The notes under the pieces: model-generated
Seen by the model: only the letters and a program-made list of their open reading frames with translations
Told to the model about the DNA's origin: nothing
Database searches by the model: none
Made by a program: the position numbers and the translations under genes
Assembly: GCA_963809925.1 (NCBI GenBank)
Contig: CAWELH010000007.1
Span: 6,133-70,132, forward strand
DNA: 64,000 nt
Origin: an uncultured Bacteroidales bacterium
Lineage (GTDB): Bacteria > Bacteroidota > Bacteroidia > Bacteroidales > GCA-2748055
Direction: 5' to 3'
Part shown: positions 5,429 to 64,000 of the stretch, one piece after another
Numbering within the stretch: the stretch's first letter is position 1
Layout of the letters: the number at the start of each line of letters is the position of its first letter

Positions 5429-5431
5429 GCT

Positions 5432-5941: not shown

Positions 5942-5949
5942 TTATCATT

Positions 5950-31059: not shown

Positions 31060-32253
31060 TTACGTTCTCAAAACCTGAAGTAATCTTAGTATGGCTTCAA
31101 TGTAATAGTAATCGGCATAAGATAGAGGAATGTCGATGCCGGCTCTGGCTGGCTTGGATACCACACTGTGTTTCAGTAAAAATCCACCGTTTTCACCTTT
31201 CGAATCAAAATACCCGGGTTCTGACAGGCAGAAAACAATGTTCTTCCCGGTTTCGAGATATTTTTTTTCCCCGGTGTGCATATAGAGTTCAATCATGGCT
31301 GAAGCAATGATGGAAGCAGCTGATGCATCCTTTTCCTCACCCGAATCTGAAGAGAGCGCAAAGTCCCAGCAGGGCACATATTCGTCACCAAGCTTTGTTA
31401 TCAGGTAATCTGCGATATGCCTGGACTGAATAAGATAGTTCGTGTCAGCGGTCTCCCTGTACATCATCGTAAATCCATAAAAGCCCCAGGCCTGTCCCCT
31501 TGACCACGAAGAACTATCATAGGCGCCCTGTAATGTTCCTTTCCGGATTGGCTTGCCGGTTACTGTATCATAATCAACAACATGAAAACAACTGTAGTTA
31601 TCCATATAGTGACTTTTCATAGTCTTGTATGAATGGCTTCCGGCTATACGGGAAAAAGTCTCACCTCCGCTATGTTTGCTGGCCCACATCAGTAATTCGA
31701 GATTCATCATGTTATCGATGATCACTGGGTATTGCTTCCACCAGCCGGGAAAATCCCACGACCTGAGGCAACCTACTGTCGGGGAAAATCGCCTGCTGAG
31801 TGATTCTGCACTCTGAAGCAGGACCCGCTTATAGTCGGGGTTTTTCGTGATGCGATATCCGTTACCATAACTGCAGTACATCATAAAACCCAGGTCGTGA
31901 GTACCGGTTTCATACTGCTGGTCTTCCAGAATTTGTGTATAATATTCAGCTTTCCTCTTCCAGAAATTATCATTTGTATATTCATAGAAATACCACAATG
32001 TTCCGGGAAAAAATCCACTGGTCCAGCCTGACGGGTCTGTCCCGACGAACCGGCCGTTCTTGAACGAATAAGGGATCTGACCGGCCTGGCCAAAATCGGT
32101 AAGTATCTGTTTATACTGTGAAGTTGCCACATCCATGATTTCTGTCAGGTGCTCTTCTTCATCCTTGCTTAACGTACTTGTATTTGTATTACAGTTCGTT
32201 AAACCCAAGCCTGTCAGTACTAAAAATCCGATAAGTACGATAACGCTCTTCAT
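31060..32253 (-). CDS. GH88 unsaturated glucuronyl hydrolase
   Basis: WTSGFFPGTLWYFYEYT, THDLGFMMYCSYGNGY, SRGQAWGFYGFTMMYRET and DASAASIIASA are characteristic of glycosyl hydrolase family 88. Confidence 0.85.
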   Translation of the reverse strand: MKSVIVLIGFLVLTGLGLTNCNTNTSTLSKDEEEHLTEIMDVATSQYKQILTDFGQAGQIPYSFKNGRFVGTDPSGWTSGFFPGTLWYFYEYTNDNFWKRKAEYYTQILEDQQYETGTHDLGFMMYCSYGNGYRITKNPDYKRVLLQSAESLSRRFSPTVGCLRSWDFPGWWKQYPVIIDNMMNLELLMWASKHSGGETFSRIAGSHSYKTMKSHYMDNYSCFHVVDYDTVTGKPIRKGTLQGAYDSSSWSRGQAWGFYGFTMMYRETADTNYLIQSRHIADYLITKLGDEYVPCWDFALSSDSGEEKDASAASIIASAMIELYMHTGEKKYLETGKNIVFCLSEPGYFDSKGENGGFLLKHSVVSKPARAGIDIPLSYADYYYIEAILRLLQVLRT

Positions 32254-40495: not shown

Positions 40496-40590
40496 ACTGA
40501 TAGTTTTGTTTGTTACACTGCCGGATACCTGTTAAATTTTTAAATGAAGCTTATTATAATTTACGATAATCATCGCTGTAACATCCTCAT

Positions 40591-40773
40591 TTAATATTCT
40601 TTGTTCTGTTTCAGACCTGTAAGTTCGATCTCGCGCCAGGGTATTCGCCATCCGTTGAAGGTCGGTCCTGCCCCATCATGCCCTTTGGCCTCTGAGAAGA
40701 AGTCGCGGGAAGGTGCTACTTCACAAGCCAGGACATTCATAATCTGAGGCATACGTATTCTTCGGTTCATCAT
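40591..40773 (-). pseudogene. internally deleted susD remnant
   Basis: DFFSEAKGHDGAGPTFNGWR matches DYFSEAKGGYAAGQDFDGWR of the adjacent SusD. IPWREIELTGLKQNKEY matches its C-terminus LPLPQAELDLTSMKQNKGY. The 3' ends are also alignable at nucleotide level. Confidence 0.6.
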
Positions 40774-40800
40774 TTTATCCCCATTGCTTTCGTGAAACGA

Positions 40801-43800
40801 CTAGAAGCCAATTTTTAGACCGAAAGTGAAACCTCTCACACTTGGGTAGTTACCGTCGTCAACACCATGAAATATATCGGAATTCTTGTATCGGCTCACC
40901 TCCGGATCGTACCCCTTGTAGTTAGTCCAGAGGTATAGGTTCTGTCCGCTCACATATACCTTAAATTCTGCAATATGAATTATATCAAGCCATTTCCGGG
41001 GCAGGCTGTAGCCAAGGGTGACATTCTGCAGCCGGATGTATGTTCCATCCTCGATGAAGCGATCGGTCGGCAGCATTTTATTATAAGCCGAGACTTTGGG
41101 AACATCGGTAAATACCCATTGTTCTGATTCCGCATCGTAATAGCTCCGCTTATCCCATGCTTCCTTGCTCAGATTCGTGCTCGGGTTCATGGTCTCCAGC
41201 CTTTGCCTTGTAAGGTTATAAATATCGCCACCCATTGATGCCTGGATAAAGATCCCCAGACTCCAGCCCTTATAGCTGAAAGTGTTGTTCATTCCCCATA
41301 CAAAATCAGGGAATGCCGAACCGATCAGTACCCGGTCCTTCGTTTCTTCAAATTTGCCGTTGCTGTCGGTGTCAGCATATTTAGGGCCTCCCAGGGAGCC
41401 CCCGTTCGCGTCAGCTTCTTCTTTATCCTGGTAAACGCCAACGTAGTGGAGTCCTACAAAGGAGCTAAGCGGCTCCCCTTTGATCATATACATCATATCC
41501 TGGGAAAGTGCAGTTGAAAGGGTAGCATTGGACGGTACGATCGTATCATTGTCGGCCAGATCCAGGATCAGATTTTTATTGGTCGAAATATTGAAATCGG
41601 TTTCCCATTTAAATGGTGCTGAAATGTTAAAGGTATGGATACTGAATTCAAATCCTTTGTTGGATACTTCTCCGACATTTACTGTCCCCTGAGCAAATCC
41701 GGATGTTCCGGGAAATTTCTTGTCCAGCAACAGGTCGTAAGTCAGCTTGTCGTAATAATCGGCGGTCATGGTGATACGGTTGTTGAAAAGTCCGATATCG
41801 AGGCCAATATCCATCTGTTTAGTAGATTCCCATCCGAGTTCACTGTTAGAAACCGTAAGGGGTACCACGACACCTATTCGTTGGTTGTTATTCAGTACGC
41901 CGTTTGTGATTGCCAGCCTGGCGAGCGATTTATAGGAACCGATCTCCGCATTTCCGACCATACCATAGCTGGCCCTGGCTTTAAGTTCGCTGATGAAATT
42001 CACATTTGACATGAACGATTCATTATGGATTTTCCAGGCAACTGCTCCCGATGGGAAAAACCCATACTTTTTGTTGACTGCAAATACGGAAGAACCATCG
42101 ACTCTGCCATTAAGAGTTATGGAATACCTGTCTGTCAGGTCATAATGAATCCGGCCCAGATACGACTCAAACTGCCTGGTGGATTTTCCCGATGACATGG
42201 AGGAGTATACATCAGCTGCGCCAATATTGAGATAGTTAAACATGAATGCATCACTTACAAAGCCATACCCTCTGCCGTTATAATCCTCCCTGCTCTCCTT
42301 TTCCCAGGTATACCCCAGAAGTGCTAGCACATGATGGTTGGGATTAAAAGTTTTATCGAAAGTGAGAATGTTTTCATTTACAAAGCGGAATATTTGATAA
42401 TTATTATACCATGCCTCACCGGAATTTCCCGCTGGTGATACTTTACTTGAGCCGACGATGCTTTCCTGAAGGTTCGCCTGGCCATGTCTCCGGTACGTCG
42501 TAGCAATACCCGCTGATGTTTTGAAATGGAGTGACGGCAGAATGGTCAGTTCAGCGGAAAAATCAGAAAGGAGATCATCAAGCTGAAGTTCAGAGACCGG
42601 AACAGGAATAGTGACAACGGAAAGGGGGTTATCCGCTGGTATTGAGAGCTTGTCGTACTGCCAGACTCCAAGTGTATCTCTTGGTTCAAAAAGCGGGCTG
42701 TATCCGAGAATGTTGTTAGAGACTCCGATACCATCCCAGAACCCTGTTTCACCTAAGTATGCTTTCCTGCTTGCGTTGGTGTTCAGACTTACTTTGAGCC
42801 ATTTATTTACCTTTGCATCGATATTCATTCGGGCAGAATACCTTTTAAATTCGGATGAGGGTACGATCCCCTTCTGATCATAAAGGTTGCCTGAAAGGTA
42901 ATACCTCATCTTTTCATTCCCTCCCGAAAAGGACAACTGGTATTCATCGGTTTCACCCTGCCTGTATACGAGGTCGTGCCAGTCAACATCCCAATCGATC
43001 TCTTCCGGTTTGGTAGGAAAACGCCGGCTCCCTATAACCGGATATGGTCTTTTGTCACCATCGTTGTGGTAGGTTTCATTGATCATATAACCGTACTCCT
43101 GGGAATTCAGAACATCGATCTTTTGGGAAATATTCTGAATTGACTTTGAATAGGTGAACTCAAATTTATCCTTCCCCGGATTTCCGGATTTTGTGGTAAC
43201 GAGCACGACGCCATTTGATGCCCTGGCGCCATAGATGGCAAGCGCAGAGGCATCTTTCAGGATGTCGATCCTCTCTATGTCGTTGGGGTTAATATCCTCG
43301 AGTTGTCCTCCCGGGAATCCGTCTATTACGATCAGCGGATCATTTCCGCTACTGATGGAATTGACACCACGGATCCTCATCCGTATCGCTCCGCCAGGTG
43401 CGCCGCTGTTTTGAGTTATTTCAACACCAGCTGCACGGCCCTGAAGAAGAAGATCAGCCCTGGCAACAGGCATACCCTGAACATCTTCAGGTTTAACGGT
43501 CGAAACGGAGCCTGTAAGATCCTTTTTCTTGATTGTACCATATCCGATCACAACAATCTCATCAAGGCTCTTGGTTTCAAGCTTAAGGGCCATGTCTATC
43601 CTGCTCCGGCTGCCAATCCCGAGTTCCTCTGTCTCGTAGCCTACATAAGAAAAGACCAGTGTCTCATCGTTCTCCTGAAGAGCCAGTTCATAATGACCGG
43701 AGATATCTGAAATCGTTCCCCTGACGGTACCTTTAACGCTCACATTAACACCGGGCAGAGGGGTCCCGTCAGCTGCATCAGTGATGGTACCTGAAACAGA

Positions 43801-43884
43801 ACGCTGCCCATATGCAGCTGTCATAAGGCTTATAAAAAACAGGGAAAGAAATATTTTCTTTATTATACATTGATATGTATGCAT
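40801..43884 (-). CDS. susC: SusC/RagA family TonB-dependent outer-membrane transporter
   Basis: Signal peptide. Carboxypeptidase-regulatory-like domain VSGTITDAADGTPLPGVNVSVKGT, TonB-box/plug DEIVVIGYGT, a long barrel and C-terminus GFTFGLKIGF. Likely start ATG 43884; the longer ORF starts with TTG. Confidence 0.95.
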   Translation of the reverse strand: MHTYQCIIKKIFLSLFFISLMTAAYGQRSVSGTITDAADGTPLPGVNVSVKGTVRGTISDISGHYELALQENDETLVFSYVGYETEELGIGSRSRIDMALKLETKSLDEIVVIGYGTIKKKDLTGSVSTVKPEDVQGMPVARADLLLQGRAAGVEITQNSGAPGGAIRMRIRGVNSISSGNDPLIVIDGFPGGQLEDINPNDIERIDILKDASALAIYGARASNGVVLVTTKSGNPGKDKFEFTYSKSIQNISQKIDVLNSQEYGYMINETYHNDGDKRPYPVIGSRRFPTKPEEIDWDVDWHDLVYRQGETDEYQLSFSGGNEKMRYYLSGNLYDQKGIVPSSEFKRYSARMNIDAKVNKWLKVSLNTNASRKAYLGETGFWDGIGVSNNILGYSPLFEPRDTLGVWQYDKLSIPADNPLSVVTIPVPVSELQLDDLLSDFSAELTILPSLHFKTSAGIATTYRRHGQANLQESIVGSSKVSPAGNSGEAWYNNYQIFRFVNENILTFDKTFNPNHHVLALLGYTWEKESREDYNGRGYGFVSDAFMFNYLNIGAADVYSSMSSGKSTRQFESYLGRIHYDLTDRYSITLNGRVDGSSVFAVNKKYGFFPSGAVAWKIHNESFMSNVNFISELKARASYGMVGNAEIGSYKSLARLAITNGVLNNNQRIGVVVPLTVSNSELGWESTKQMDIGLDIGLFNNRITMTADYYDKLTYDLLLDKKFPGTSGFAQGTVNVGEVSNKGFEFSIHTFNISAPFKWETDFNISTNKNLILDLADNDTIVPSNATLSTALSQDMMYMIKGEPLSSFVGLHYVGVYQDKEEADANGGSLGGPKYADTDSNGKFEETKDRVLIGSAFPDFVWGMNNTFSYKGWSLGIFIQASMGGDIYNLTRQRLETMNPSTNLSKEAWDKRSYYDAESEQWVFTDVPKVSAYNKMLPTDRFIEDGTYIRLQNVTLGYSLPRKWLDIIHIAEFKVYVSGQNLYLWTNYKGYDPEVSRYKNSDIFHGVDDGNYPSVRGFTFGLKIGF

Positions 43885-44030
43885 TTCTGTAAAGTGTTTA
43901 GATGGTAGTTTTATATCCGTCAACTTTGAACCAATATTCAATCCGGGACAGCGTGTATCCCACCGCAGAGAGTACTTTGCCTTTGTGAAAGTTTGCGTTT
44001 AGAACGCCGGATTTGAAATTAACTTTAATA

Positions 44031-52330: not shown

Positions 52331-55300
52331 ATGAGAGTTCGTCTGCAATTCATATTCATCATGTTGTTTAGTGTTTCAGCACTGTTTTCTCAACCGGAAC
52401 AGCTGACATTTCAACATTTTGCTTCAAATGAAGGACTTCCACATTCCGTTGTAACGTGCATGCACCAGGACACGAATGGGTATCTTTGGATAGGAACTGG
52501 TAACGGATTAATAAAATATGATGGTTACGATTTCAAAGTCTATAAATCAATGCTTTATGACACTAACACGTTAAGCAATGATGGGATAAAATGTATTTCC
52601 GAAGACAAGCATGGTAATTTATGGATTGGAACACAACAGGGCCTGAACAGGTTTAACCCGGAAACTGAAATATCCGAACGTTTTCTGCCTGATAAAAATA
52701 AACAAAATAGTTTATTACAAAATAATGTCAATTCTCTCTTCATTGATTCACTTGGACTTATATATATAGGTACTGAAGGTTTGCAGGTATTTAACCCTGG
52801 AACGAAAATATTTACAATTCTGGACACTGCAAGTATTACAAGTGCTGTGTTATCAATACTTAAAGATGAGTCCGGAGAACTTTTGGTTTCAACATCAGAT
52901 GGTTTTTTCAATGTAGACCTGCATTCTGGCATCACAACAAGGTTTCCCTGCACCGGCCTGATAGAAAAGGAACAAAAGGGAGTATTAAACGGTTGCGCAG
53001 TTAACCAGGTTATGCGGGATAATTTTGAGGCCGAAACTTTTTGGTTAGCTACGAATACAGGTATCAGTGAATTAAACAAAAATTCTGGTTGGTTTACTAA
53101 TTATCGGTTTGAAGAGTTTAATGAGAAAAATGCGGAAAACTCAGGAACTCTATGTCTATATATTGAGAAGAGTGGTAAAATCTGGACAGGTACTCAATCG
53201 CAGGGAATATTTATTTTTAATCCCGTAAATTCTGTCTTTGAAACCAATCTCAAAACCAATCCTCTTGATCCTAAATCTCTAAGCGATAATACTATAAGTG
53301 GAATTACTGCTGATTGCTTTGGGAATCTATGGATAGGAACAATTGGTGGAGGACTGAATAAGACACTTCTGGATGCACCCAAGTTCAGGAGATATCTTTA
53401 CTTCCCAACTAATTCGGCAGGGTTAAACGACAAAACAGTATGGTCCATTCATGAGGATCAGCATAACAAGGTGTGGATTGGTACTGAGAATAATGGAATT
53501 GATGTATTAGACCGTTCGACAGGGAAATTCTCATATTATACGAATAAACAAGGTTTAAAAAACCAGGTAGGACCTGGAATTGTCGGGGATATCTGCGAGG
53601 ATAAGGATGGTTATATCTGGGCTGTAACTTGGTCCGGAACGTTGAATAAAATCGATCCAAATACCGGTAATGTGAAAGTTTACAGGGGAGGGCCGGAACC
53701 ATACAATAATTTAAAAGGGTGGTCATTTCGCGTAATATTAAGTGACAGGGATAATGTCTTGTGGGTCGGTTCCTGGGATAAAGGGATTGAGATTTTTGAT
53801 AAAAAAAAGGAGAAGTCCTCAAAACTTATCTTCGGGAAATACACCATTGATGACCGGATTTCTTCCCTTATACAAGGAAAATCTGGTATTATCTGGTGCG
53901 GTACTAATACAGGCATTTATGCCATGAACCCTGATAAAAAGGAGATTAATTTTTATCCTTTGAATACAGCCGATAGCACAGGCATTCAATGTAACGAGAT
54001 CAAAGCACTATATGGGGAAAATGACAGCATTCTTTGGATAGCAACACAGGGATGTGGTCTTTACAGGTTAAACACAGTCTCCGGAGAAGTATCTAATTAT
54101 GACATGAAGGACGGGCTTCCGGATAATAATATTTATGCAGTGTGTCCCGATAACCATGGCCATCTGTGGTTGAGCACCGGTAACGGAATATCTGATTTTG
54201 ATGTCACCAGTAATACTTTTCGAAATTACGATAAATCAGATGGTCTTCAAAGCAATGAGTTTAAATGGGGAGCATATTTTCAAAACACCAGAGGCGAGAT
54301 ATTCTTCGGTGGCATAAACGGCTTTGATATATTTAATCCTGATAGCATCCGGGACAACCGGTATACTTCGAAAACAGTACTTACTGATTTTAAAATTTCG
54401 AATACGCAGATAAATCCAGGTGATAGTATAAATGGGCGGGTGTTGCTGTCGAAACTTATAGGTTATACCGACCATCTCGAACTTTCATACAAGGAATCAG
54501 ATATCTCCTTTGAGTTCGCCGCTTTACATTTTGCTTCTTCCGAAAAGAACAAGTTTGCATATATAATGAAAGGTTATGATGCAGGCTGGAAATATACCGA
54601 TGCTTCCAAACGGTTTGCAGTTTACACAAACATGGATCCCGGGAATTACACTTTTCGGGTAAAATCATCCAACAATGATGGTATCTGGTGTAAACCGGAA
54701 GATGAGGTGGCACTGAAGATTTATATTTCCCCGCCTTTCTGGAAGACATGGTGGTTCAGAATCACAATAATCCTTATAATATTTACAGCATTTTACTCTC
54801 TATACCTGATGCGTACTCACCGGTTGAGACTTCAAAAACTGGTATTGGAAAAAACAGTGTCAGAACGAACCCATGAAATTAACTTGCAGAAAGATGTCCT
54901 GAGGAATCAGAAGGAAGAACTTGCAATACAGGCCGATAATTTGCAGGAAGCCAACATTTTGCTTACAGCGCACAGTGAAGAACTTCAATCATTTTCCGAA
55001 GAGCTTAGAGTACAGGGTGAAGAACTATTCGAGGCTAATGAGGAACTCATAAGGCTAAATGCTACCAAAGACCGTTTGTTTTCCATCATCGCGCATGATC
55101 TTAAAAATCCCTTTCAGGCGATATTAGGATCATCCGGGTTATTGGCTGTACAATTTAACACCTTGGATGAGAACAAGAGAAAACAGTACATCGATAATAT
55201 ATTTGAATCCGCTAGAAACGCGCACAATCTGCTGGAGAATCTGCTAGAATGGGCACGTTCGCAAATTAACAGGATTGAATTCAGACCAGAGTATATTAGT

Positions 55301-56617
55301 CTTGTCACGATAGTGCAAAAGGCTATCCAGCTAATGAGTCTCCAGGCATCTGATAAAAAAATATCGGTGACCACTGATATTTCTGAAGACCATACTGCTT
55401 ATGCCGACAACAAAATGGTTGAAACCATCATCCGGAATTTTCTGGGCAATGCTATCAAATTCACGTCCGAAGGAGGAAAAATCCACATAGGTTTCCATGA
55501 AGAAGCAAACGGGATGGTTTGTGTGGAAGTTGCAGATAATGGTATTGGGATGGAAAAGGATGTTTTAGATAAACTGTTCCGTATCGATGAAGCTCATATC
55601 GGGACAGGAACAGCCGGTGAACAGGGAACCGGTCTCGGGTTAATTCTGTGTCGCGAATTTGCGGAAAGTAATGGTGGGAGCATCGATGCACAAAGTGAAC
55701 CTGGAAAAGGCAGCAGGTTTAGTTTACATCTTCACCGCAAGAAATCTAGCTACCTTGAATATAATAGTAAAATGCAATCGGTGGAATTTTTCATTCACAA
55801 GAAACAGGAGGTGAATGTGGTTTCGGTTGAATCAGTAAGAAAGCCAGTAAAGGATCGGTACCACTTACTGATTATAGACGATAATTTTAATATTAGAAAA
55901 AGCATTGTTGCGCAACTGGAAGAACAATACCTGATATCAGAAGCATCAGATGGGAAACAGGCATTGGAAATTGCCTTTAGAAAAATACCGGATATGGTCA
56001 TCAGCGATGTGATGATGCCTGAAATGGATGGTTTCGAATTGTGCAAAATTCTCAAGGAAGATAAAAGAACGAGTCACATTCCGATTATCCTTTTAACTGC
56101 AAGAGTCTCCGACAATAGTAGAATGCTGGGATTTAACCTTGGCGCTGACGAATACATCACCAAACCGTTTAACATTGAGGTGCTTGAATCACGAATTTAT
56201 AACCTTATTTCTCAGCGCGAGAAATTAAGAAATCTGTTTCGGGATGAGATATTACTGACCCCTAAAAAAACAACCGTTAATTCTCTGGACGAAATATTCT
56301 TCAGCAAGATACAGGAGATAATAGATAAATATATGGATGACAGCTCTTTTAACCCTGGCACATTGGCTCATGAACTTGGAATAAGTCGGGCTGTTTTGTA
56401 TAAGAAATTTAAATATTTGACCGATTACAGTGTCAATGAATATATTCAGATAATCAGGATTAAAAGGGCAGCTGCGTTATTGCTTGAAGGAAATAATTCG
56501 GTCACCGATGCTGCATATGCCACAGGTTTTAAGAATCCTAATCACTTCAGCAGGGTATTCAGTCAGTATTATCATGAATCACCTTCTAAATATATGGCTG
56601 AAAAAAAGAAGGAGTAG
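52331..56617 (+). CDS. hybrid two-component system regulator (periplasmic propeller/Y_Y_Y sensor, HisKA-HATPase, receiver, AraC-type HTH)
   Basis: 1428 aa. Repeated GNLWIGT/LWIGT propeller motifs, a TM segment WWFRITIILIIF, the H-box FSIIAHDLKNP, the ATPase G-boxes DNGIGM and GTGLGL, the receiver LLIIDDN...DVMMPEMDG, and the C-terminal AraC HTH YATGFKNPNHFSRVF. Confidence 0.95.
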   Translation: MRVRLQFIFIMLFSVSALFSQPEQLTFQHFASNEGLPHSVVTCMHQDTNGYLWIGTGNGLIKYDGYDFKVYKSMLYDTNTLSNDGIKCISEDKHGNLWIGTQQGLNRFNPETEISERFLPDKNKQNSLLQNNVNSLFIDSLGLIYIGTEGLQVFNPGTKIFTILDTASITSAVLSILKDESGELLVSTSDGFFNVDLHSGITTRFPCTGLIEKEQKGVLNGCAVNQVMRDNFEAETFWLATNTGISELNKNSGWFTNYRFEEFNEKNAENSGTLCLYIEKSGKIWTGTQSQGIFIFNPVNSVFETNLKTNPLDPKSLSDNTISGITADCFGNLWIGTIGGGLNKTLLDAPKFRRYLYFPTNSAGLNDKTVWSIHEDQHNKVWIGTENNGIDVLDRSTGKFSYYTNKQGLKNQVGPGIVGDICEDKDGYIWAVTWSGTLNKIDPNTGNVKVYRGGPEPYNNLKGWSFRVILSDRDNVLWVGSWDKGIEIFDKKKEKSSKLIFGKYTIDDRISSLIQGKSGIIWCGTNTGIYAMNPDKKEINFYPLNTADSTGIQCNEIKALYGENDSILWIATQGCGLYRLNTVSGEVSNYDMKDGLPDNNIYAVCPDNHGHLWLSTGNGISDFDVTSNTFRNYDKSDGLQSNEFKWGAYFQNTRGEIFFGGINGFDIFNPDSIRDNRYTSKTVLTDFKISNTQINPGDSINGRVLLSKLIGYTDHLELSYKESDISFEFAALHFASSEKNKFAYIMKGYDAGWKYTDASKRFAVYTNMDPGNYTFRVKSSNNDGIWCKPEDEVALKIYISPPFWKTWWFRITIILIIFTAFYSLYLMRTHRLRLQKLVLEKTVSERTHEINLQKDVLRNQKEELAIQADNLQEANILLTAHSEELQSFSEELRVQGEELFEANEELIRLNATKDRLFSIIAHDLKNPFQAILGSSGLLAVQFNTLDENKRKQYIDNIFESARNAHNLLENLLEWARSQINRIEFRPEYISLVTIVQKAIQLMSLQASDKKISVTTDISEDHTAYADNKMVETIIRNFLGNAIKFTSEGGKIHIGFHEEANGMVCVEVADNGIGMEKDVLDKLFRIDEAHIGTGTAGEQGTGLGLILCREFAESNGGSIDAQSEPGKGSRFSLHLHRKKSSYLEYNSKMQSVEFFIHKKQEVNVVSVESVRKPVKDRYHLLIIDDNFNIRKSIVAQLEEQYLISEASDGKQALEIAFRKIPDMVISDVMMPEMDGFELCKILKEDKRTSHIPIILLTARVSDNSRMLGFNLGADEYITKPFNIEVLESRIYNLISQREKLRNLFRDEILLTPKKTTVNSLDEIFFSKIQEIIDKYMDDSSFNPGTLAHELGISRAVLYKKFKYLTDYSVNEYIQIIRIKRAAALLLEGNNSVTDAAYATGFKNPNHFSRVFSQYYHESPSKYMAEKKKE

Positions 56618-56897: not shown

Positions 56898-57788
56898 TTA
56901 AAATCCGGCAGGCCATTCTTCCCTGCCTTTGATGTTCACATTCAATGCATATACCAGACCGCCCAAAAAGTGGCCCGATTTGTCGAGACCGTGAAGGATA
57001 TCTGCACCCCCTTCACATGCGGAGGTTATGAAAAGGGTGTCGAGTGCCGGACCTCCGAACATGACGCTGGAGGGCTGTACCGCCGGAACCGCAAATTCAG
57101 CCATCACCTTTCCTGATGGTGATATCCGCCGTATACATGAGGCACCCCAGAAGGCCACCCAGATGTACCCCTCAGAATCCATGGTGATACCATCTGGCGA
57201 ACCGGCATCTGTACCGGAGGTATGATACCAGGTTTCAGGATTACTGATACTCCCCGATCTTATGTCGTATTCATACCTCCTGATCGTACCTGCAAGACTG
57301 TCGGTGTGATAAAAGTACTTGTGATCAGGAGAGAAGGTCATCCCGTTTGATATACCAATACCCTCGAGCAAAACCTGCGGAGACTTAATCCGTTCAAAAC
57401 TATACAGTATACCGTCTTTCAGGTTTTCCTTTTTTGTCCCTGCAATAAGTCGGCCGGCAGGATCGGTGGTTACGTCGTTGAAACGTTCGTTTTTTTCGAA
57501 GGGCAGGCTGTAAATCTGATGCAGGATACTCCTGCCTTTACTGTTTTCAAGTATGAACACACCCTGATCGGAACAAATCACCAAATTGCCTTCCGTGGTG
57601 AATGCCATCCCGCCGGTTTGCATCCTGCCCGACCAGAAAAGCGCAGACTCTCCTGTTTGAGCATCATATCGCCAAATCTCTCCATTGAGGATATCTGTCC
57701 AGTATAACGCCTTTTCTCTCACGTTCCATAACGGGCATTCAGCAAGGTGGAATATTTTATCGCAAATCGGGTGAATTTCAATATTCAT
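56898..57788 (-). CDS. SMP-30/gluconolactonase/LRE family protein
   Basis: ECPLWNVREKALYWTDILNGEIWRYD, SNGMTFSPDHKYFYHTDS and PDGITMDSEGYIWVAFWG. The start overlaps the upstream stop as ATGA. Confidence 0.85.
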   Translation of the reverse strand: MNIEIHPICDKIFHLAECPLWNVREKALYWTDILNGEIWRYDAQTGESALFWSGRMQTGGMAFTTEGNLVICSDQGVFILENSKGRSILHQIYSLPFEKNERFNDVTTDPAGRLIAGTKKENLKDGILYSFERIKSPQVLLEGIGISNGMTFSPDHKYFYHTDSLAGTIRRYEYDIRSGSISNPETWYHTSGTDAGSPDGITMDSEGYIWVAFWGASCIRRISPSGKVMAEFAVPAVQPSSVMFGGPALDTLFITSACEGGADILHGLDKSGHFLGGLVYALNVNIKGREEWPAGF

Positions 57789-58951
57789 CTTTTCAGGATA
57801 TACGTTTGCATTGTGTATGCATCCATAACCATACGAAACAACTCATCCGTGGAGTTCAGTCCGCAATACCGGCCAAGCGCGACTTCCGGACCTTCCTGTT
57901 TTATGGTTCTGATGACTTCCAGCGTCCCCGGATCTGATGACCCCTCGTAACAAAGCGCCGCCGCTATGGCACGTGCATAGGCATAGGGTTTCCTGCCGTG
58001 TTTCAGACAAAGCAGGGCCGGTCCAAGTAGCCGTTCGTCCCTGCCAAGCTTCCGCCGGAGATCCCGGGCATTGCGTTCTATAGGATCATTCAATGCCGGA
58101 TCGGTATATTTTTTTGTTGCCAGTGCCATGAAGGCTTTCTGTTCCTCTTCTTTGATGCCGAATTCCCTGGTCAGCCCATACGATGACTCCTCCCTGATCA
58201 TATCAAAAAAAGTACTGAATTCCAGGGCCGCCTCATGCAGGATACGGAATCCGTTAACCCAACCAACATAGGAAATCGGACCGTTTGTTCCGTTAAACGT
58301 ATATAACTTCCTTATCAGCTCGTTTGAAAAATGTGACCGGGGTAAAAAACCGGTAACATTCGGAATCTTCCCCACAAAAGCATCCCTGTCGAGAGGCAGC
58401 GACCACCAGTCGTGCATCCTGAGTGCCAGCGGCTCCTTTTGCTTAATATGTTCCGGAGCTTCCATGCCTGTTCTCAACACCTGCGTTTCCACCAGACCCA
58501 GACGATGATCGACAAAATAACGAAAAGCCTCCTCCGCTCCTTCGAGCAGTGTCTCCCTGATCCTGGCTGCAGGGTGAAGTGCATTTTCGCAGATCAGCCA
58601 GTTCATATTCTGATTCAGGTTCCGCTTCTTCAGCAATTCTTTCATCATCGCTGCAACAGAAGAGATATGGTTTGCGCCGACACTCGTAACCAGGATTTCA
58701 ACCCTGTTTAACACCTCCTGGATCGTTTCCGGATGATGAATGTCAAATGCACCTTCTATGCTGATGTATTCTGTGTCATCCCCATCAGATCCGGCAATAT
58801 CAACCCGGTATTTCTTCTCCTGATTCAGGAGCCCGACCAACTCTTCAGATGCATCCGCAAACCATAATTTGTACCCGCTCCTGTGGAAAAGCTGACCGAT
58901 GAATCCTCTGCCGATCTTTCCTGCTCCAAAAATGATGACTTCCTTATTCAT
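57785..58951 (-). CDS. mannitol-1-phosphate 5-dehydrogenase (MtlD)-family dehydrogenase, paralog 2
   Basis: N-terminus IIFGAGKIGRGFIGQLF, then LICEN, RKLYTFNGTNG and DPIERNARDLRRKLGRDERLLGP. These parallel E. coli MtlD ([51 protein letters not shown]). Confidence 0.7.
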   Translation of the reverse strand: MNKEVIIFGAGKIGRGFIGQLFHRSGYKLWFADASEELVGLLNQEKKYRVDIAGSDGDDTEYISIEGAFDIHHPETIQEVLNRVEILVTSVGANHISSVAAMMKELLKKRNLNQNMNWLICENALHPAARIRETLLEGAEEAFRYFVDHRLGLVETQVLRTGMEAPEHIKQKEPLALRMHDWWSLPLDRDAFVGKIPNVTGFLPRSHFSNELIRKLYTFNGTNGPISYVGWVNGFRILHEAALEFSTFFDMIREESSYGLTREFGIKEEEQKAFMALATKKYTDPALNDPIERNARDLRRKLGRDERLLGPALLCLKHGRKPYAYARAIAAALCYEGSSDPGTLEVIRTIKQEGPEVALGRYCGLNSTDELFRMVMDAYTMQTYILKR

Positions 58952-60413
58952 AACTAATATTCAATTGCTTCTGAAGAGTTAAAAACAAATTATATTTCTT
59001 CTGGTATTCATCCCTGAGAGACGGATCAGGTTTCACAAGATTGAAGGTGGCTGCAGGTGGGTTCACTATATCTTTTCCTTTTTTAACCGCGGTCATATGG
59101 TTAATCAGTCCCCTGATCGCCAATTCCGGATCTTCTGAGACCTGAATTTCACGACCCAGCACAGAAGCCCTGATCAGGTTGAGCAAGCTGTTCTTTGATG
59201 TTCCGCCGCCGGAAAACAAGCTACCCGGAAGAGTCCCGTTTATAGATAATAATGACTGCCGACGGGCGAAGGCGATGGATTCCAGGATAGAACGAAACAA
59301 ATGGGCGCGGGTATGAATTGTTCGTAGTCCGATAAAGGAAGCCGTAAGAGCGCTGTTCCAGAAAGGAGCGCGTTCCCCTTCAAGATACGGGATGAACACG
59401 GGGCAATCCGATGGTTTGAGCTGTTCTGCTTCCGTGGTAAGAGCGGACAATATTTTTTCATCCGTCTCATTCCCAAGAATGTTTTCAATGAACCAGGTTA
59501 CCAGGTTCCCTCCCGTATTTGCACTTCCATAACTTACAAAGCCATCGTCAAGGGCCACAACCATATGTGTTTTTCCGGGCAAAGGCGATTTTTTAAAGTA
59601 AAAGCCAGCAATCTCGGAAGTATTCCCCAGAATGAATGCATCACCATCATGAAGTGTCATGCTCAGAAAAGAAGCATAAAAATCGGCCATAGAAGGAAAG
59701 ACAAAGGTCTTTTCCGGAAATCCAAAACGATTTCCGATCTCAGGAAGAACAGGCTTAGATTGCTCTGTGATCTCAGGAAACCGGGCCTCCTCCAACCCGA
59801 GGTATTCGAGGTATCTCCTAACATACGTTTTCCCGGTCTGATGTACCATACTTACCTGTGCACTGAAATGTGTGGTAAGTGAATTTGTTAGTTTAGTGAA
59901 GATGGCATCACCGGCCTGAATGAAATGAGTGCCTGGAAGAAAACCTGCCTGGTTTGCAGCCATAAGCTTAGTAAGGAGCCAGTTGGTTCCCAAAGGCAGG
60001 TATGAAGCCATATTCTTCAGGGCACGTTCACCTCCGGTAAGGTGCTCAAGTTCTTCTAGTGCGGTAGAGCTGGTGCTGTCAAGCCAAACGGAGAAACGGT
60101 TCCGGACAGGCTGCTGTATAGCATCGTCCCACTCCAGTAAACTGGAAACATGACTACATATCCCGATATAGCATTTTTCAATACCTTTCTCACTGAGAAA
60201 ATGTCCGAGTAAGCCGAATAGTTCAAAAACCTTTTCCTCCATGGAATGATAGTCCGAAAGCACCGACCCCCCTGCAGCATAAATCAGTTCATTATTAATG
60301 CGTCCGGGGAAAATGATTTCTTTTGAAATCCCCGGACAATAGACACCGAGCTTGATGACCGATGTCCCAATGTCGAGTGCGGCAAAGGCTATATTTTCAT
60401 TATCCCTGTTCAA
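58944..60413 (-). CDS. FGGY-family carbohydrate kinase
   Basis: N-terminal AALDIGTSVIKLG phosphate-1 motif and C-terminal GGGTSKNSLLNLIRASVLGREI. The TTG start overlaps the upstream TGA (TTGA); the stop overlaps the next start by 8 nt. Confidence 0.85.
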   Translation of the reverse strand: MNRDNENIAFAALDIGTSVIKLGVYCPGISKEIIFPGRINNELIYAAGGSVLSDYHSMEEKVFELFGLLGHFLSEKGIEKCYIGICSHVSSLLEWDDAIQQPVRNRFSVWLDSTSSTALEELEHLTGGERALKNMASYLPLGTNWLLTKLMAANQAGFLPGTHFIQAGDAIFTKLTNSLTTHFSAQVSMVHQTGKTYVRRYLEYLGLEEARFPEITEQSKPVLPEIGNRFGFPEKTFVFPSMADFYASFLSMTLHDGDAFILGNTSEIAGFYFKKSPLPGKTHMVVALDDGFVSYGSANTGGNLVTWFIENILGNETDEKILSALTTEAEQLKPSDCPVFIPYLEGERAPFWNSALTASFIGLRTIHTRAHLFRSILESIAFARRQSLLSINGTLPGSLFSGGGTSKNSLLNLIRASVLGREIQVSEDPELAIRGLINHMTAVKKGKDIVNPPAATFNLVKPDPSLRDEYQKKYNLFLTLQKQLNISYE

Positions 60414-61567
60414 TATTCATTTTCCTTATATTTTTTTTTAATCAGATGGAACAATGTTTCCTCTGGTTGAAGTGAACAAACCCCCGTTAGAATATCATCG
60501 ATTCCACGCTTTTGAATTTCATTTTGGAGGCTGAAGCCGGTATCCTTATCCTGAAAGAAAAATCCTGCCAGTATACCTTCTATCAATCCTTCAGGGTGAA
60601 TACCATGTTTTATCGCCAGTAAGGCGGGACCAATTAGCCGGTCATCTCTGCCAAGTTTGCGGGCCGGATCTGCACCGTTCCTTGATATAGGATCGGGAAG
60701 ACCTTTATCTGAAAATTTTTTGAATGCAGATTCAACCCACTCAGCCTGCTCGTCGGGATCAAAGTTAAATTCTGCAACCTGAGCCTGCGATGTTTCCGCT
60801 GCAGCCAGTCTGGCTGTTTTCAGGATTTCCGGATCAACAGCGGCTTCATAGAGCTGGGTATAGCCCTTTTTATATCCCAGAAAGGTAATAACAGCATTAA
60901 TGCAATTGTAGGTATAGATCTTTCGTCTGACCTGGTTTTTGAAATCGGGCAATGGTTTCAGTCCTATAATTTTCGGCACATTCCCTTTGAAGGCATCGCC
61001 ATCACATGGCAGATCAAAGTAGTCCTGAGCCAGGATATCCAGGGCACATCCTTTGGAAGTATGCAGACAGGTTCTTAGGATCATGGCATCAGAAAAACCG
61101 GCCTTTTCTGTCAACCATTCGATAAAGGCCATATCGCCGGAAAGTGAAGAAATTTTATTCCGTATTGTAGTGGAAGCGTTGCTGAAATTTTCGCACATCA
61201 CAAAATTCAGGGGTTTACCTGGATTTTGCTGGAAGCGTTGACGAAGTGCAGGTAACAAGGTCTCTGCGAGATCCGGCAGGTTATTGCCAAAAACAGCGGT
61301 AAAGGCGATATCGGCATCTACCAGGTATTTCATCCAGCTGTCATTTCCGGTATGAAATACACCGAAGGGATGAATGGTACAATCCTTCGATACATCACCA
61401 ATGATCCTAACTGTATATACCTCATCGCCTTGCATCTGTCTGACCAGCTTTATATTGCTGTCAATCAGGATAATGCGATATCCGCTTAAGTAAGCCAGGT
61501 GTGCGGCAAAACCTCTTCCGGTTTTCCCTGCCCCAAATATGACAGCCAGTGGATGATGACTTGACAT
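60410..61567 (-). CDS. MtlD-family dehydrogenase, paralog 1
   Basis: VIFGAGKTGRGFAAHLAYLSGY, FVMCEN, RRKIYTYNCINA and DPISRNGADPARKLGRDDRLIGP. Same architecture as 57785-58951. Confidence 0.7.
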   Translation of the reverse strand: MSSHHPLAVIFGAGKTGRGFAAHLAYLSGYRIILIDSNIKLVRQMQGDEVYTVRIIGDVSKDCTIHPFGVFHTGNDSWMKYLVDADIAFTAVFGNNLPDLAETLLPALRQRFQQNPGKPLNFVMCENFSNASTTIRNKISSLSGDMAFIEWLTEKAGFSDAMILRTCLHTSKGCALDILAQDYFDLPCDGDAFKGNVPKIIGLKPLPDFKNQVRRKIYTYNCINAVITFLGYKKGYTQLYEAAVDPEILKTARLAAAETSQAQVAEFNFDPDEQAEWVESAFKKFSDKGLPDPISRNGADPARKLGRDDRLIGPALLAIKHGIHPEGLIEGILAGFFFQDKDTGFSLQNEIQKRGIDDILTGVCSLQPEETLFHLIKKKYKENEY

Positions 61568-61578
61568 AAAAAACGGAT

Positions 61579-62352
61579 TTAGGTGGACAAATCGGGATCG
61601 AGAGCAAAACCCCCGTCATATCGTACAAGGCTTCCGGTCATATAAGAGGAGGCATCTGATGCGAGGAAGTAGGTTAGTCCGGCAGCCTCTTCAGGCTTTC
61701 CGGCCCGACCGAGCGGTATGGTTCCTTTTGCCTGTTCTTCAATCTGTGCTGCGGAATAAAACTTCTGTTCACCCTCTGTGTTGAACCAGCCAAGGATAAT
61801 ACCGTTCACCCTAATATGGTCACCTGCCACCGCCCTGGCTATATGGCGCACCATATGGTTTAATGCGGCTTTTGTGAGGGCGTAGGCGAAACCTGTTGGA
61901 TTTACAAATTCACCCTGATTCGAGCTGTGAATAACAATATTTCCGGGCATCGACATTTCTTTCCAATGATCAATAAACAACCTGGACAGGCTGAAGTTAC
62001 CCAAAATATTGACATCGAAGGTCTGCTGCAGCAGTTCTGTGTCCGTCTCACTGAAGGTGGCCTTTTTTTGAAACGCAGCATTGAGGACGAGTACATCCGG
62101 GATTTTACCATCAGCACAGGAAGCCTCGAAAATCCGTCTCACGTGTTTCGGATCACCGACATCTCCCTGAACGAGGATGCCCTTGCCGCCGGCTTCTTCA
62201 ACACGGATAAGGGTTTCTTCAGCACTATCGAGGGCAGAAAGGTAATTTATGATGACGGTAGCCCCATCTTCTGCGAATCTGATGGCACATGCCCGGCCTA
62301 TTCCTTTGCCGGCACCCGTGATCAGAATCTTTTTATTCCTGAAGTCACTCAT
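61579..62352 (-). CDS. short-chain dehydrogenase/reductase (SDR)
   Basis: TGAGKGIGRA cofactor motif, NAAF, the catalytic YALTKAALNHM (YxxxK), 257 aa. Confidence 0.9.
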   Translation of the reverse strand: MSDFRNKKILITGAGKGIGRACAIRFAEDGATVIINYLSALDSAEETLIRVEEAGGKGILVQGDVGDPKHVRRIFEASCADGKIPDVLVLNAAFQKKATFSETDTELLQQTFDVNILGNFSLSRLFIDHWKEMSMPGNIVIHSSNQGEFVNPTGFAYALTKAALNHMVRHIARAVAGDHIRVNGIILGWFNTEGEQKFYSAAQIEEQAKGTIPLGRAGKPEEAAGLTYFLASDASSYMTGSLVRYDGGFALDPDLST

Positions 62353-62368
62353 ATGTGTAATTAACGGT

Positions 62369-63409
62369 TTATGGTATATTTAGTACGGCTTTTACCGCTT
62401 CCCTCTTCTGCAACTTATCGAAGGCTTCTTCCCAACGCTCCAGCGAATATTGATGAGTAATGATCTGGCTGATCTTTGCCTGGTTTCTTTCCAGAATGCC
62501 AATAGCTTTATCCCAGCTGCTGTGTGATGATGTTGCTGAGAAGATCACCTCCAGTACATTCAGGACTGCATCATTGAAGGGAAAAGGGATTTGCCTCTGT
62601 TCAGCGATCCCCAGTGCAATAAATCTTCCACCCTTTCGCAATATCCTGATGCCCTGATCGATTGCTGCTGGCGCACCAGAACAGTCGATCACACAATCGG
62701 CCTTCCAGCCTCCGTTTATTTCCGGAATGATTCGTTCAATATCAGCAGTGGTCGATAAAACTTCTGTTGCTCCCAGTGTGGCGGCCAGGTTATATCGCAT
62801 TCTGGAATTTCCTGTTGGCGTAACACATATGATATTTTTCACTCCAAAGTCAAGCAGTGCGATAAGAGTAAACAATCCAATGGAACCCATACCATAAATT
62901 ACGGTGAAGTCGTCCGCACTGATCCTGCCCCGTTCAATACAGCCATAAACACAAATGGCCATCGGCTCAGCCATGGCGGCTATCTCGGGTGGCAGTACAG
63001 CCGGAATTTTATGCACGCAATAATCGGGTTGAACGGTATATTCTGCATAGACTCCCTGAGATTTCCAGCCCGGAGGCTGTTTTTCCGGACAGAGTTCGTA
63101 ATGCCCGGAAAGGCATTGTTTACATTTCATGCATGCCCCTTTGGCCAGTTCACAGACAACAGGGTCTCCGACAGAGAATGCCTTCTGAACAGCTTTTCCC
63201 AATCCGGCTATCCGACCGCTGAATTCGTGGCCCACAATATTATTGTCGGGCATTTCCATCGAACCATGCAGCACATGCAGATCGGATGTGCATATACCAA
63301 TGGAAGAAACCCTGATCAGAATATCGTTATCGTTCTCCACTTCCGGTGCCGGTGTTTCCACCAGCTGGAAATGAACACCACCATCCGAAAATTTTTTTAT
63401 CGCCTTCAT
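62369..63409 (-). CDS. zinc-dependent medium-chain alcohol/polyol dehydrogenase (sorbitol dehydrogenase-like MDR)
   Basis: GICTSDLH and GHEFSGRIAGLG (catalytic zinc), CxxCxxCxxxxxxxC-type structural zinc region CMKCKQCLSGHYELC, and GMGSIGL Rossmann motif. Confidence 0.9.
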   Translation of the reverse strand: MKAIKKFSDGGVHFQLVETPAPEVENDNDILIRVSSIGICTSDLHVLHGSMEMPDNNIVGHEFSGRIAGLGKAVQKAFSVGDPVVCELAKGACMKCKQCLSGHYELCPEKQPPGWKSQGVYAEYTVQPDYCVHKIPAVLPPEIAAMAEPMAICVYGCIERGRISADDFTVIYGMGSIGLFTLIALLDFGVKNIICVTPTGNSRMRYNLAATLGATEVLSTTADIERIIPEINGGWKADCVIDCSGAPAAIDQGIRILRKGGRFIALGIAEQRQIPFPFNDAVLNVLEVIFSATSSHSSWDKAIGILERNQAKISQIITHQYSLERWEEAFDKLQKREAVKAVLNIP

Positions 63410-63430
63410 CGTCTTTTGTATTCTATATCT

Positions 63431-64000
63431 TTATTTCCAGTCTTCAAAAAACGCTGGTTCCGCCAGCAACTGAACATGTCCGTTTTCAGGCGCAGCAAGC
63501 ATAAACATGATTGCATCAGCAATATCATCCGGATTGAGCATTTTTTCCAGGTTTTGTGTCCCGGATTTTATATGCAGGTTCGTTTTTGTTGAACCTGGAC
63601 ATATGCAGCCGATCCTGATACCATGTTCTCTCAGTTCGAGCTGCAGATTTCTTGAAAAACCGACAATGGCCCACTTGCTCGCCATATATGCCGATGCGCC
63701 CGGCATTCCCGATTTCAGACCCGACATGCTGGACACATTTATAATAATGCCCTGTTTTTGACCGATCATGTATCGGGTCACAGCCTGTGTAACAAGGAAA
63801 GTTCCTTTCACATTTACATCGAAAATAAGATCCCAGAACGCTTCGTCCATTGCCACAAATTCCTTCCATAGTGAGATGCCGGCAGAATTCACAAGCATAT
63901 CGATATTGCCTGCATCACGATAAAACCGATTCACAGCATCGATCACCGCCTCAGGATCCCTGATATCGGCCTCATAGCATTTGATATGCCGGGGCATAAT
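63431..64000 (-). CDS. SDR family oxidoreductase, N-terminus beyond the window edge
   Basis: NSAG, SSMSGLKSGMPGASAYMASKWAIVGF (S...YxxxK) and CPGSTKT. The Rossmann TGxxxGxG region is missing, so the gene continues past nt 64000. Confidence 0.8.
   Translation of the reverse strand: MMPRHIKCYEADIRDPEAVIDAVNRFYRDAGNIDMLVNSAGISLWKEFVAMDEAFWDLIFDVNVKGTFLVTQAVTRYMIGQKQGIIINVSSMSGLKSGMPGASAYMASKWAIVGFSRNLQLELREHGIRIGCICPGSTKTNLHIKSGTQNLEKMLNPDDIADAIMFMLAAPENGHVQLLAEPAFFEDWK

Follow-up and report, generated by a model that had tools for sequence, protein, structure and literature searches.

A Bacteroidales operon with sister MtlD-like dehydrogenases around an FGGY kinase probably encodes an undescribed route of sugar catabolism

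Oxidative aldose pathways of the De Ley-Doudoroff type employ an aldose dehydrogenase, an SMP-30 lactonase, a DgoR-type GntR/FCD regulator, and a DgoT transporter. The L-idonate pathway of E. coli (IdnT, IdnD, IdnO, IdnK) and the 2-ketogluconate route of Pseudomonas (KguK, KguD) reach 6-phosphogluconate as their end point and involve neither a dehydratase nor an aldolase. In the Klebsiella dal operon (DalD, DalK, DalT) and the Pseudomonas mtl operon, an FGGY kinase and a sugar transporter accompany an enzyme of the mannitol-dehydrogenase family, and pairings of these two enzyme families with a transporter of the major facilitator superfamily (MFS) are known for D-arabitol. Here, we describe an operon from an uncultured Bacteroidales bacterium, located in and just beyond a 64,000-nucleotide stretch of DNA (hereafter the window; positions 6,133 to 70,132 of contig CAWELH010000007.1, GenBank assembly GCA_963809925.1). 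At its core is a triad of genes encoding an MtlD-like dehydrogenase (M1), an FGGY kinase, and a second MtlD-like dehydrogenase (M2). The enzyme families of the operon are all well known; its architecture is new, its chemistry is probably new, and it probably encodes an undescribed route.

The whole unit consists of a hybrid two-component system (HTCS) regulator gene, a leader, and eight genes, all on the minus strand. The triad is preceded by genes for an SSF symporter, two SDR-family proteins (SDR-A and SDR-B), and a Zn-dependent medium-chain dehydrogenase (Zn-MDR), and is followed by a lactonase gene. Loci that carry the triad share with the De Ley-Doudoroff type the same kinds of entry and control functions (SDR aldose dehydrogenase, SMP-30 lactonase, GntR/FCD regulator, and ACS-type MFS transporter), but where the second half of that pathway is dehydratase-kinase-aldolase, here it is dehydrogenase-kinase-dehydrogenase. 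The operon follows the same logic as the idonate and 2-ketogluconate routes, in which a transporter and a kinase work with two dehydrogenases for the inversion or reduction of a keto-aldonate. The families differ, however, as those routes use a Zn-MDR, an SDR, a P-loop or PfkB kinase, and a 2-hydroxyacid dehydrogenase, with no MtlD-type enzyme and no FGGY kinase, and the window operon adds an aldose dehydrogenase and a lactonase. The dal and mtl operons share the trio of mannitol-dehydrogenase-family enzyme, FGGY kinase, and transporter, but their dehydrogenases are long-chain and use free polyols, each kinase is matched by just one dehydrogenase, and they have no lactonase. An original prediction, made by a model from the window's letters and open reading frames (ORFs), could not match the gene set to any pathway it could name, and this held up: Pfam places all seven enzymes firmly in superfamilies, none of them reaches an NCBIfam equivalog or subfamily cut-off, and no characterized operon with this gene set was found in the literature searched. 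The same literature yielded nothing relevant on polyol, mannitol, or sorbitol kinases, on FGGY proteins in connection with mannitol-1-phosphate or sorbitol-6-phosphate, on L-sorbose-1-phosphate reductase, on phospho-mannonate or phospho-idonate, or on clusters joining mannitol-dehydrogenase-family enzymes to FGGY kinases.

The two MtlD-like proteins resemble characterized mannitol-1-phosphate 5-dehydrogenases (M1PDHs; E. coli/Shigella MtlD, structure 3H2Z; S. aureus, 5JNM; A. baumannii MtlD) in length (~385 aa) and in Pfam domains, with Mannitol_dh and Mannitol_dh_C scores of 75.1 and 54.8 bits for M1 and 85.4 and 40.7 bits for M2 (cut-offs 27 and 30.7). The best PDB match of both is 3H2Z (E 1e-38 for M1, 5e-40 for M2). 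Also in common are the catalytic Lys, both oxyanion Asn, and the Asp that ends the second Rossmann strand (NAD-type), which are kept across the clades to which M1 and M2 belong. Identity to the M1PDHs is nevertheless only ~25–30%, and the M1PDH equivalog models (NF002645-NF002653) are missed, with best scores of 220 bits (M1) and 205 bits (M2) against 356. M1 and M2 are moreover a sister pair around a kinase and do not adjoin a phosphotransferase system (PTS) gene. In a maximum-likelihood tree M1 and M2 fell into separate sister clades, each monophyletic with respect to the other (support 100/99); neither clade includes E. coli MtlD or the third MtlD-like gene that the genome carries. Branching within the two clades is congruent, with Planctomycetota basal, then the window lineage, and then a Chitinophagaceae crown. 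Reciprocal monophyly together with congruence argues that the pair diverged on closely related substrates, and the congruence shows that the duplication is old and that the triad has been inherited or transferred as one unit.

Residues of the substrate pocket separate one end of the presumed substrate from the other. Structures and mutagenesis established that the DxxxR, RK, and (D/E)R motifs bind the phosphate of mannitol-1-phosphate or fructose-6-phosphate and are absent from mannitol 2-dehydrogenases (M2DHs) (PMC6623548, PMC9168451). These motifs are invariant in both clades, accounting for four of the five basic residues; at the fifth, the first Arg of RxxxRKxxxx(E/D)R, M1 has Ala and M2 varies. 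Mutation of this first Arg had only a moderate effect in the S. aureus M1PDH, where it matters least (PMC6623548). Q, M, Q, K, and R occupy the same five positions in UxuB, YeiQ, and YdfI, the E. coli enzymes that bind a carboxylate. The claim that two polyol-phosphate-type members of the MtlD family surround the kinase is supported. At the other end of the pocket, the family catalytic consensus KxxxxNxxH (PMC9168451) is broken: every one of the 13 M1 and 12 M2 sequences has Asn in place of the His, with the Lys and Asn invariant. This His is kept in E. coli MtlD, UxuB, YeiQ, and YdfI and in the third paralog of the genome. In PfM2DH the Asp of the V(D/N)RxV motif holds the terminal CH2OH beside the reacting carbon (PMC9168451); in both clades this Asp is Leu and the adjoining Ile is Thr. 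Both clades have also gained an invariant Lys where E. coli MtlD has its residue 316. The Asp-to-Leu and His-to-Asn changes are expected if the group beside the reacting carbon is no longer CH2OH but, for example, a carboxylate. We read these states as indicating that M1 and M2 would act on very similar substrates whose far end is anionic, most likely phosphorylated, and whose near end is unlike that of mannitol-1-phosphate. Public records label relatives of the triad proteins 'mannitol-1-phosphate 5-dehydrogenase', 'xylulokinase', or 'hypothetical', the first and last of these being used for relatives of M2, and the mannitol labels on M1 and M2 relatives are probably misannotations.

The third MtlD-like gene, which keeps the family His, encodes a short protein of 409 aa and lies elsewhere in the genome (G000:C10, ~116.1-117.3 kb; L108 9112-10341, minus strand). 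Its neighbors on the same strand (L108 1967-9105) encode two HAD phosphatases, an aldo-keto reductase, a PHP-like protein, a class II aldolase::SDR fusion, and a Zn-MDR, which looks like a separate cluster of M1P-dehydrogenase/phosphatase type or for a deoxy sugar.

The kinase scores 79.8 bits to FGGY_C and 24.7 bits to FGGY_N, the latter just under the cut-off of 28.8. That score aside, we judge it an FGGY-family kinase by its domains, its DxGT(S/T) motif, its catalytic Asp, and its GGG ATP motif: all of 17 homologs share D14 in DIGTS, D244, and G403-G404, and GGG occupies 402-404. It falls far short of every relevant NCBIfam equivalog, XylB being the best model (88 bits against 380), followed by GntK_FGGY (80 against 648), GlpK (55 against 590), and FucK (30 against 471). 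Among solved structures it comes closest to a gluconate kinase of the FGGY family (E 8e-18). A search of 5.8 billion proteins returned ~110 clusters at 34-51% identity, beyond which scores drop from ~E 1e-65 (truncated relatives) to ~1e-23, and an ESM Atlas search returned generic FGGY clusters only. The subfamily is rare and patchy, occurring in 2 of 60 relatives and in none of 400 genomes drawn evenly from across the phylum. One of the two relatives belongs to the same genus and has the same eight-gene operon at just 46-75% identity. The kinase is an outlier and represents a distinct FGGY subfamily.

Outside this subfamily, the nearest FGGY kinases (28-31% identity; L114-L119, e.g. L117 7632-13573) are always flanked by genes for radical-SAM, MOSC, HpcH/HpaI aldolase, M20 peptidase, and amidohydrolase_2 proteins, and another out-group kinase (L123) has a 2-keto-3-deoxy-6-phosphogluconate (KDPG) aldolase and a TctC receptor (acid uptake) as neighbors; these loci are another uncharacterized acid-sugar cluster. 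In L120 (1097-3315), an M2-like gene (38% identity) comes directly after the gene of a still more distantly related FGGY kinase (26% identity), so the pairing of kinase and dehydrogenase may predate the triad.

A scan of one genome from each of 185,579 species, with a separate scan of metagenomes, identified at least 12 orthologous genome loci and 5 metagenome loci. The genomes comprise Chitinophagaceae, other Bacteroidota metagenome-assembled genomes, and three Planctomycetota; one locus, L009, is from the culturable Segetibacter aerophilus NBRC 106135. The order MtlD-like 1, FGGY, MtlD-like 2 was found, mostly with overlapping genes, in 12 of the 12 genome loci listed and in 5 of the 5 metagenome loci, the two shortest or truncated contigs being checked over their readable part. 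Recurrence of one order in all of them takes the arrangement beyond chance. The neighborhood statistics given below rest on these 17 loci (labeled with L numbers), many of which are kin.

The company the triad keeps varies across its range. The Zn-MDR gene precedes it in the window, L005, seven Chitinophagaceae genome loci, and two metagenome loci. SDR-B stands beside it in the window, L005, L006, L012, and L014, spanning two phyla at 57-69% identity. A lactonase accompanies it in the window, L005, and L006, and more distant lactonases (32-34% identity) occur in the Planctomycetota loci L014 and L112, where a GntR/FCD regulator and the lactonase are paired and divergent from M1-FGGY-M2-SDR-B. 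The SSF symporter is found in the window, L005, and L006, and SDR-A, among the loci compared, in the window and L005 only. In six Chitinophagaceae loci a XylE-like sugar porter lies 3' of the triad. The sole companion of the triad in L011 is an MFS transporter whose best model is the D-galactonate transporter subfamily, and this locus has neither an aldose dehydrogenase nor a lactonase. No isomerase, aldolase, dehydratase, or phosphatase was found in any of the 17 loci. In the Planctomycetota locus L012, the triad sits beside heparinase II/III-like (DUF4962) and GH39-like proteins, at 13765-15918 and 5097-7691, which hints at a uronic-acid-containing glycan at that locus.

Assignments of the accessory enzymes are firm at the level of family. 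SDR-B has TGxxxGIG and YxxxK motifs, and its full-length top PDB matches are Bacillus glucose 1-dehydrogenases (E 6e-37); it scores 179 bits to the NCBIfam glucose 1-dehydrogenase subfamily NF005559 (cut-off 215) and also matches the L-rhamnose 1-dehydrogenase model, making it a candidate aldose 1-dehydrogenase. SDR-A scores 164 bits to adh_short and has the same two motifs. The lactonase covers positions 1-245 of the 246 in Pfam SGL (234.6 bits) and is a family member by its best PDB matches too, the Caulobacter xylonolactonase 7PLB (E 1e-31) and regucalcins. Zn-MDR has ADH_N, ADH_zinc_N, and Glu_dehyd_C domains with intact zinc sites (catalytic C40, H61, and E62; structural Cys 93/96/99/107). 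Its best PDB matches are an archaeal threonine dehydrogenase, a xylitol dehydrogenase, and a ketose reductase; it is equally distant from threonine, xylitol, and sorbitol dehydrogenases and ketose reductase, and it misses the Tdh, IolM, GatD, and IdnD equivalog cut-offs. Its best E. coli paralog (30% identity) lies at 1.860 Mb, which we take to be the ydj region, followed by Tdh and, third, LgoD; to triad-adjacent orthologs in 9 other loci it is 60-67% identical. The symporter scores 213 bits to Pfam SSF and 324 bits to the NCBIfam sss superfamily, and its orthologs (75% and 62% identity) lead the operon in L005 and L006. The upstream regulator contains Reg_prop, Y_Y_Y, HisKA, HATPase_c, Response_reg, and HTH_18/AraC domains.

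From the observed gene content, operon structure, triad conservation, motif states, and accessory-gene associations, we tentatively favor a reading in which a neutral aldose is broken down, by way of a sugar acid, through an oxidative route that includes phosphorylation. The SSF symporter would import the sugar, SDR-B would oxidize the aldose at C1 to a lactone, and the SMP-30 lactonase would open this lactone to an aldonate. The FGGY kinase would then phosphorylate the terminal primary hydroxyl of the aldonate, and the sister NAD-dependent pair would act in turn on the phospho-acid, converting a secondary alcohol to the keto form and this to the opposite stereochemistry. The net outcome would be a redox-neutral inversion yielding a central metabolite, in the simplest case from 6-phospho-D-mannonate through 2-dehydro-6-phosphogluconate to 6-phosphogluconate. 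Zn-MDR and SDR-A may provide extra entry or side steps, and the upstream HTCS presumably regulates the operon. We infer the order of these steps, the placement of both dehydrogenases after the kinase, the position oxidized, and, above all, the identity of the sugar.

Several observations are consistent with this route. The accessory set (SDR-B, lactonase, GntR/FCD regulators, and galactonate-transporter-like MFS) points to a sugar-acid intermediate, the recurrence of SDR-B and lactonase beside the triad in both deep lineages points to an aldose-to-aldonate module, and the affinity of the kinase to gluconate kinase and the acid-sugar neighbors of its out-group point to a sugar-acid class. As no locus encodes an isomerase, aldolase, dehydratase, or phosphatase, the product of the triad should already be central, and the genome, having two 6-phosphogluconate dehydrogenase (Gnd) genes, can use 6-phosphogluconate. 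The original label of a sugar/polyol operon is probably too narrow, as the accessory genes indicate aldose-to-aldonate entry. It is possible, if doubtful, that the triad by itself constitutes a new self-contained sugar-acid entry, in which an FGGY acid-sugar kinase and an M1PDH-derived pair would epimerize a phospho-acid via a keto intermediate. Such an entry would replace the dehydratase and aldolase steps of the Entner-Doudoroff or De Ley-Doudoroff type, and the module would have moved between Bacteroidota and Planctomycetota, plugging into different uptake systems and polysaccharide utilization loci (PULs).

A number of points weigh against the sugar-acid route. We know of no family member that oxidizes beside a carboxylate, and a clearly placed new basic residue to bind that carboxylate could not be shown, Lys 316 being located by alignment only. 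The kinase resembles gluconate kinase only weakly, its best E. coli paralog by profile score is FucK, and the transporter, regulator, and SDR assignments all lie below curated cut-offs. D-mannonate is the only hexonate whose 6-phosphate becomes central by inversion at C2, and it is weakened as the physiological substrate by the presence of UxuA, UxaC, and KDPG aldolase (Eda) genes outside the operon; mannose, moreover, is normally used without oxidation. Finally, the triad of the Chitinophagaceae crown comes with Zn-MDR and the XylE-like neutral sugar porter and without lactonase or SDR-B, and in L003, L004, L007, and L008 it lies within SusC/SusD/GH32 fructan-type PULs, a setting that points to fructose, another ketose, or a hexitol and not to an aldonate. 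These four loci are close kin within one shallow crown clade, so the association reflects few independent events.

The GH32 setting, in which the cassette takes the place of the fructokinase, is best accommodated by a polyol-phosphate route that bypasses the PTS. A hexitol or pentitol would be imported, or a ketose reduced by Zn-MDR or an SDR, the FGGY protein would be a polyol kinase, and the paralogs would act in parallel on two epimeric polyol phosphates (e.g. of glucitol-6-phosphate and mannitol-1-phosphate types, or two pentitol phosphates) to give fructose-6-phosphate or xylulose-/ribulose-5-phosphate. To our knowledge Bacteroidota generally lack sugar PTS systems, and the kinase could stand in for the PTS step that feeds MtlD, SrlD, or GatD. 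This route needs no further enzymes and agrees with the phosphate pocket conserved in M1 and M2, with the neutral-sugar-type transporters (SSF, XylE-like porters), and with the resemblance of Zn-MDR to xylitol and sorbitol dehydrogenases and ketose reductase. We nevertheless consider it somewhat unlikely: it leaves the lactonase, SDR-B, the GntR/FCD regulators, and the galactonate-transporter-like MFS unexplained, it offers no reason for the loss of the His and Asp that true M1PDHs use on the same substrates, a polyol kinase of this kind was not found in the literature searched, and the fructan-type loci that favor it are the few kindred ones just mentioned. Polyols could instead be oxidized before phosphorylation, as in the Klebsiella DalD/DalK and Pseudomonas mtl systems, with M1, M2, Zn-MDR, and the SDRs converting free polyols to one ketose (such as D-xylulose or fructose) for the FGGY kinase. 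The D-arabitol precedent, XylB as the best kinase model, and the closeness of Zn-MDR to xylitol dehydrogenase speak for this version, but M1 and M2 are of the short M1PDH type with residues for a phosphorylated substrate that M2DH-type enzymes lack, a strict 1:1:1 triad with sister paralogs is unlike simple substrate broadening, and the lactonase and GntR/FCD regulator again go unexplained, which makes it unlikely.

Two further schemes would retain an oxidative or inverting role for the pair with a different sugar. Zn-MDRs and mannitol-dehydrogenase-family enzymes perform L-aldonate inversion in known pathways, and by analogy with E. coli L-idonate (IdnD/IdnO/IdnK) and Bacteroides vulgatus L-galactose utilization, an L-aldose could pass through its lactone and L-aldonate, be oxidized at C5 to a keto-uronate, and be reduced to a D-aldonate before the kinase acts, giving e.g. 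6-phosphogluconate. An aldose dehydrogenase and a lactonase are indeed in the operon, LgoD is among the E. coli matches of Zn-MDR, the kinase has some similarity to gluconate kinase, and the GH39-like (a family that includes iduronidases) and heparinase-like genes near the triad in L012 would fit. We regard this inversion as decidedly unlikely, however, since UxuB, YeiQ, and YdfI lack three basic residues kept in M1 and M2 and have the Asp that is missing from M1 and M2, a central metabolite would be reached from L-idonate alone while L-idose does not occur naturally as a free sugar, and the kinase gene sits between the dehydrogenase genes. Alternatively, the kinase might, like FucK and RhaB, phosphorylate a 6-deoxy-ketose at C1, with the paralogs oxidizing and reducing C5 beside the methyl group (by inversion or to a 2,5-diketone) and an aldolase encoded elsewhere cleaving the product. 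The pocket beside the reacting carbon is hydrophobic (Leu, Thr, and Tyr in M1 or Phe in M2), the His-to-Asn change falls where mannitol-1-phosphate carries its C2 hydroxyl, FucK is the top-scoring E. coli paralog, and SDR-B matches the L-rhamnose 1-dehydrogenase model. This scheme is very improbable, as it draws on three residues known from sequence, none of the 17 loci has an isomerase or aldolase, and the 6-deoxy-aldonates that SDR-B and the lactonase would make have no primary hydroxyl for the kinase. A sulfoquinovose pathway, with the anion pocket binding a sulfonate, was rejected: sulfogluconate offers the kinase no primary hydroxyl, and neither a sulfoquinovosidase nor an isomerase is present. 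A paper on sulfoglycolysis in which FGGY is mentioned proved unrelated.

If the sugar-acid route is correct, it would represent a new type of sugar-acid catabolism with two new specificities in the mannitol-dehydrogenase family and one new FGGY specificity, and would correct a systematic misannotation of the relatives. The module is small, sharply bounded, present in two phyla, and marked by diagnostic residues (Asn for His, Leu for Asp), making it tractable for enzyme screening.

The Chitinophagaceae loci L003, L004 (970-15544), L007, and L008 (1378-15548) are fructan-type PULs with SusC, SusD, and one or two GH32 genes, in which the only inner-membrane transporter and the only kinase belong to the Zn-MDR-triad-MFS cassette; none encodes a PfkB fructokinase in the locus. 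The Bacteroides thetaiotaomicron fructan PUL BT1754-BT1765 has a PfkB fructokinase. It has SusC, SusD, GH32, and one inner-membrane sugar transporter in common with L004 and L008, but these have the Zn-MDR-triad cassette at the place of PfkB. Replacement of the fructokinase may change the interpretation of carbon flow in soil from fructans of plants and microbes. The last gene of L008 encodes a LacI-type regulator, and just downstream of the PUL in L004 (16827-18563) is a group II intron reverse transcriptase/maturase with an HNH domain. The window operon itself is outside any GH32 PUL, GH32 genes being located elsewhere in the genome.

The proposal that the operon processes monosaccharides released by the neighboring PUL of the window found little backing. 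SusC and SusD genes lie at 38861-43941, separated from the operon by genes for type IX secretion system cargo and by a convergent HTCS gene (52331-56617), and the operon has an HTCS and a transporter of its own. Linkage to SusC/SusD is not conserved, as orthologous operons occur in other contexts: in the same-genus genome the operon adjoins a GH116 gene, and in L006 it comes after a ROK regulator gene, with genes for a sulfatase and a beta-helix/CBM9 protein nearby. This last protein is 25% identical over 416 aa to a protein of the window PUL, the sole similarity between that PUL and any orthologous locus; conservation of the PUL in these loci was tested and largely not found. A functional link between operon and PUL is possible, but conservation does not support it. 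The PUL consists largely of proteins without a clear family. For the ORFs at 25901-28471 (856 aa), 23549-25126 (525 aa), and 35366-36247 (293 aa), Pfam gave no hit at E 0.01, and the putative GH88 at 31060-32253 barely reaches its cut-off (27.1 against 26.6 bits). Of the lack, noted earlier, of a Kdu/Kdg set, isomerase, aldolase, and dehydratase, the last three extend to every locus, but the missing Kdu/Kdg genes are uninformative because UxuA, UxaC, and KDPG aldolase are encoded elsewhere in the genome.

The region is a translationally coupled, tightly packed catabolic sugar operon (Table 1). The ORF list and Pfam agree with every family call made earlier for the seven co-directional genes of the window, and the three predicted overlaps are at exactly the positions given (60410-60413, 4 nt; 58944-58951, 8 nt; 57785-57788, 4 nt). 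Intergenic gaps had been put at 9-21 nt; they measure 11, 16, and 21 nt, so the upper end is right and the 9 is not. Reading the contig past 64000, as had been suggested, completed SDR-A and added the symporter, leader, and HTCS genes, so the seven-gene operon proposed for the window has eight genes in full, the symporter being first; its gene overlaps SDR-A by 14 nt. Matches to consensus promoters and terminators inside the operon were not above shuffled controls.

Table 1. Features of the operon and its upstream region; coordinates beyond 64000 are extrapolated from the contig.
Feature	Position	Strand	Basis
HTCS regulator, 1394 aa	66317-70501, extrapolated (L002 9450-13634)	-	Pfam
Leader, ~590 nt, HTCS gene to symporter	65730-66316, extrapolated	-	Read directly
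SSF Na+/solute symporter, 524 aa, first operon gene	64155-65729, extrapolated (L002 7288-8862)	-	Pfam
SDR-A, full length 245 aa	63431..64000 in the window, to 64168 extrapolated (L002 6564-7301)	-	Contig extension
Zn-MDR, 346 aa	62369..63409	-	Pfam
SDR-B, 257 aa	61579..62352	-	Pfam
MtlD-like 1 (clade M1), 385 aa	60410..61567	-	Pfam
FGGY kinase, 489 aa, TTG start	58944..60413	-	Pfam
MtlD-like 2 (clade M2), 388 aa	57785..58951	-	Pfam
SMP-30/gluconolactonase-family lactonase, 296 aa, last operon gene	56898..57788	-	Pfam

The leader contains a 43-codon ORF that is not conserved in L005 or L006. It also contains two copies of the 12-mer AATACTTGTAAA on the minus strand, ~240 nt apart (L002 9272-9283 and 9032-9043; extrapolated 66139-66150 and 65899-65910), which could be a candidate operator for an AraC-type output domain.

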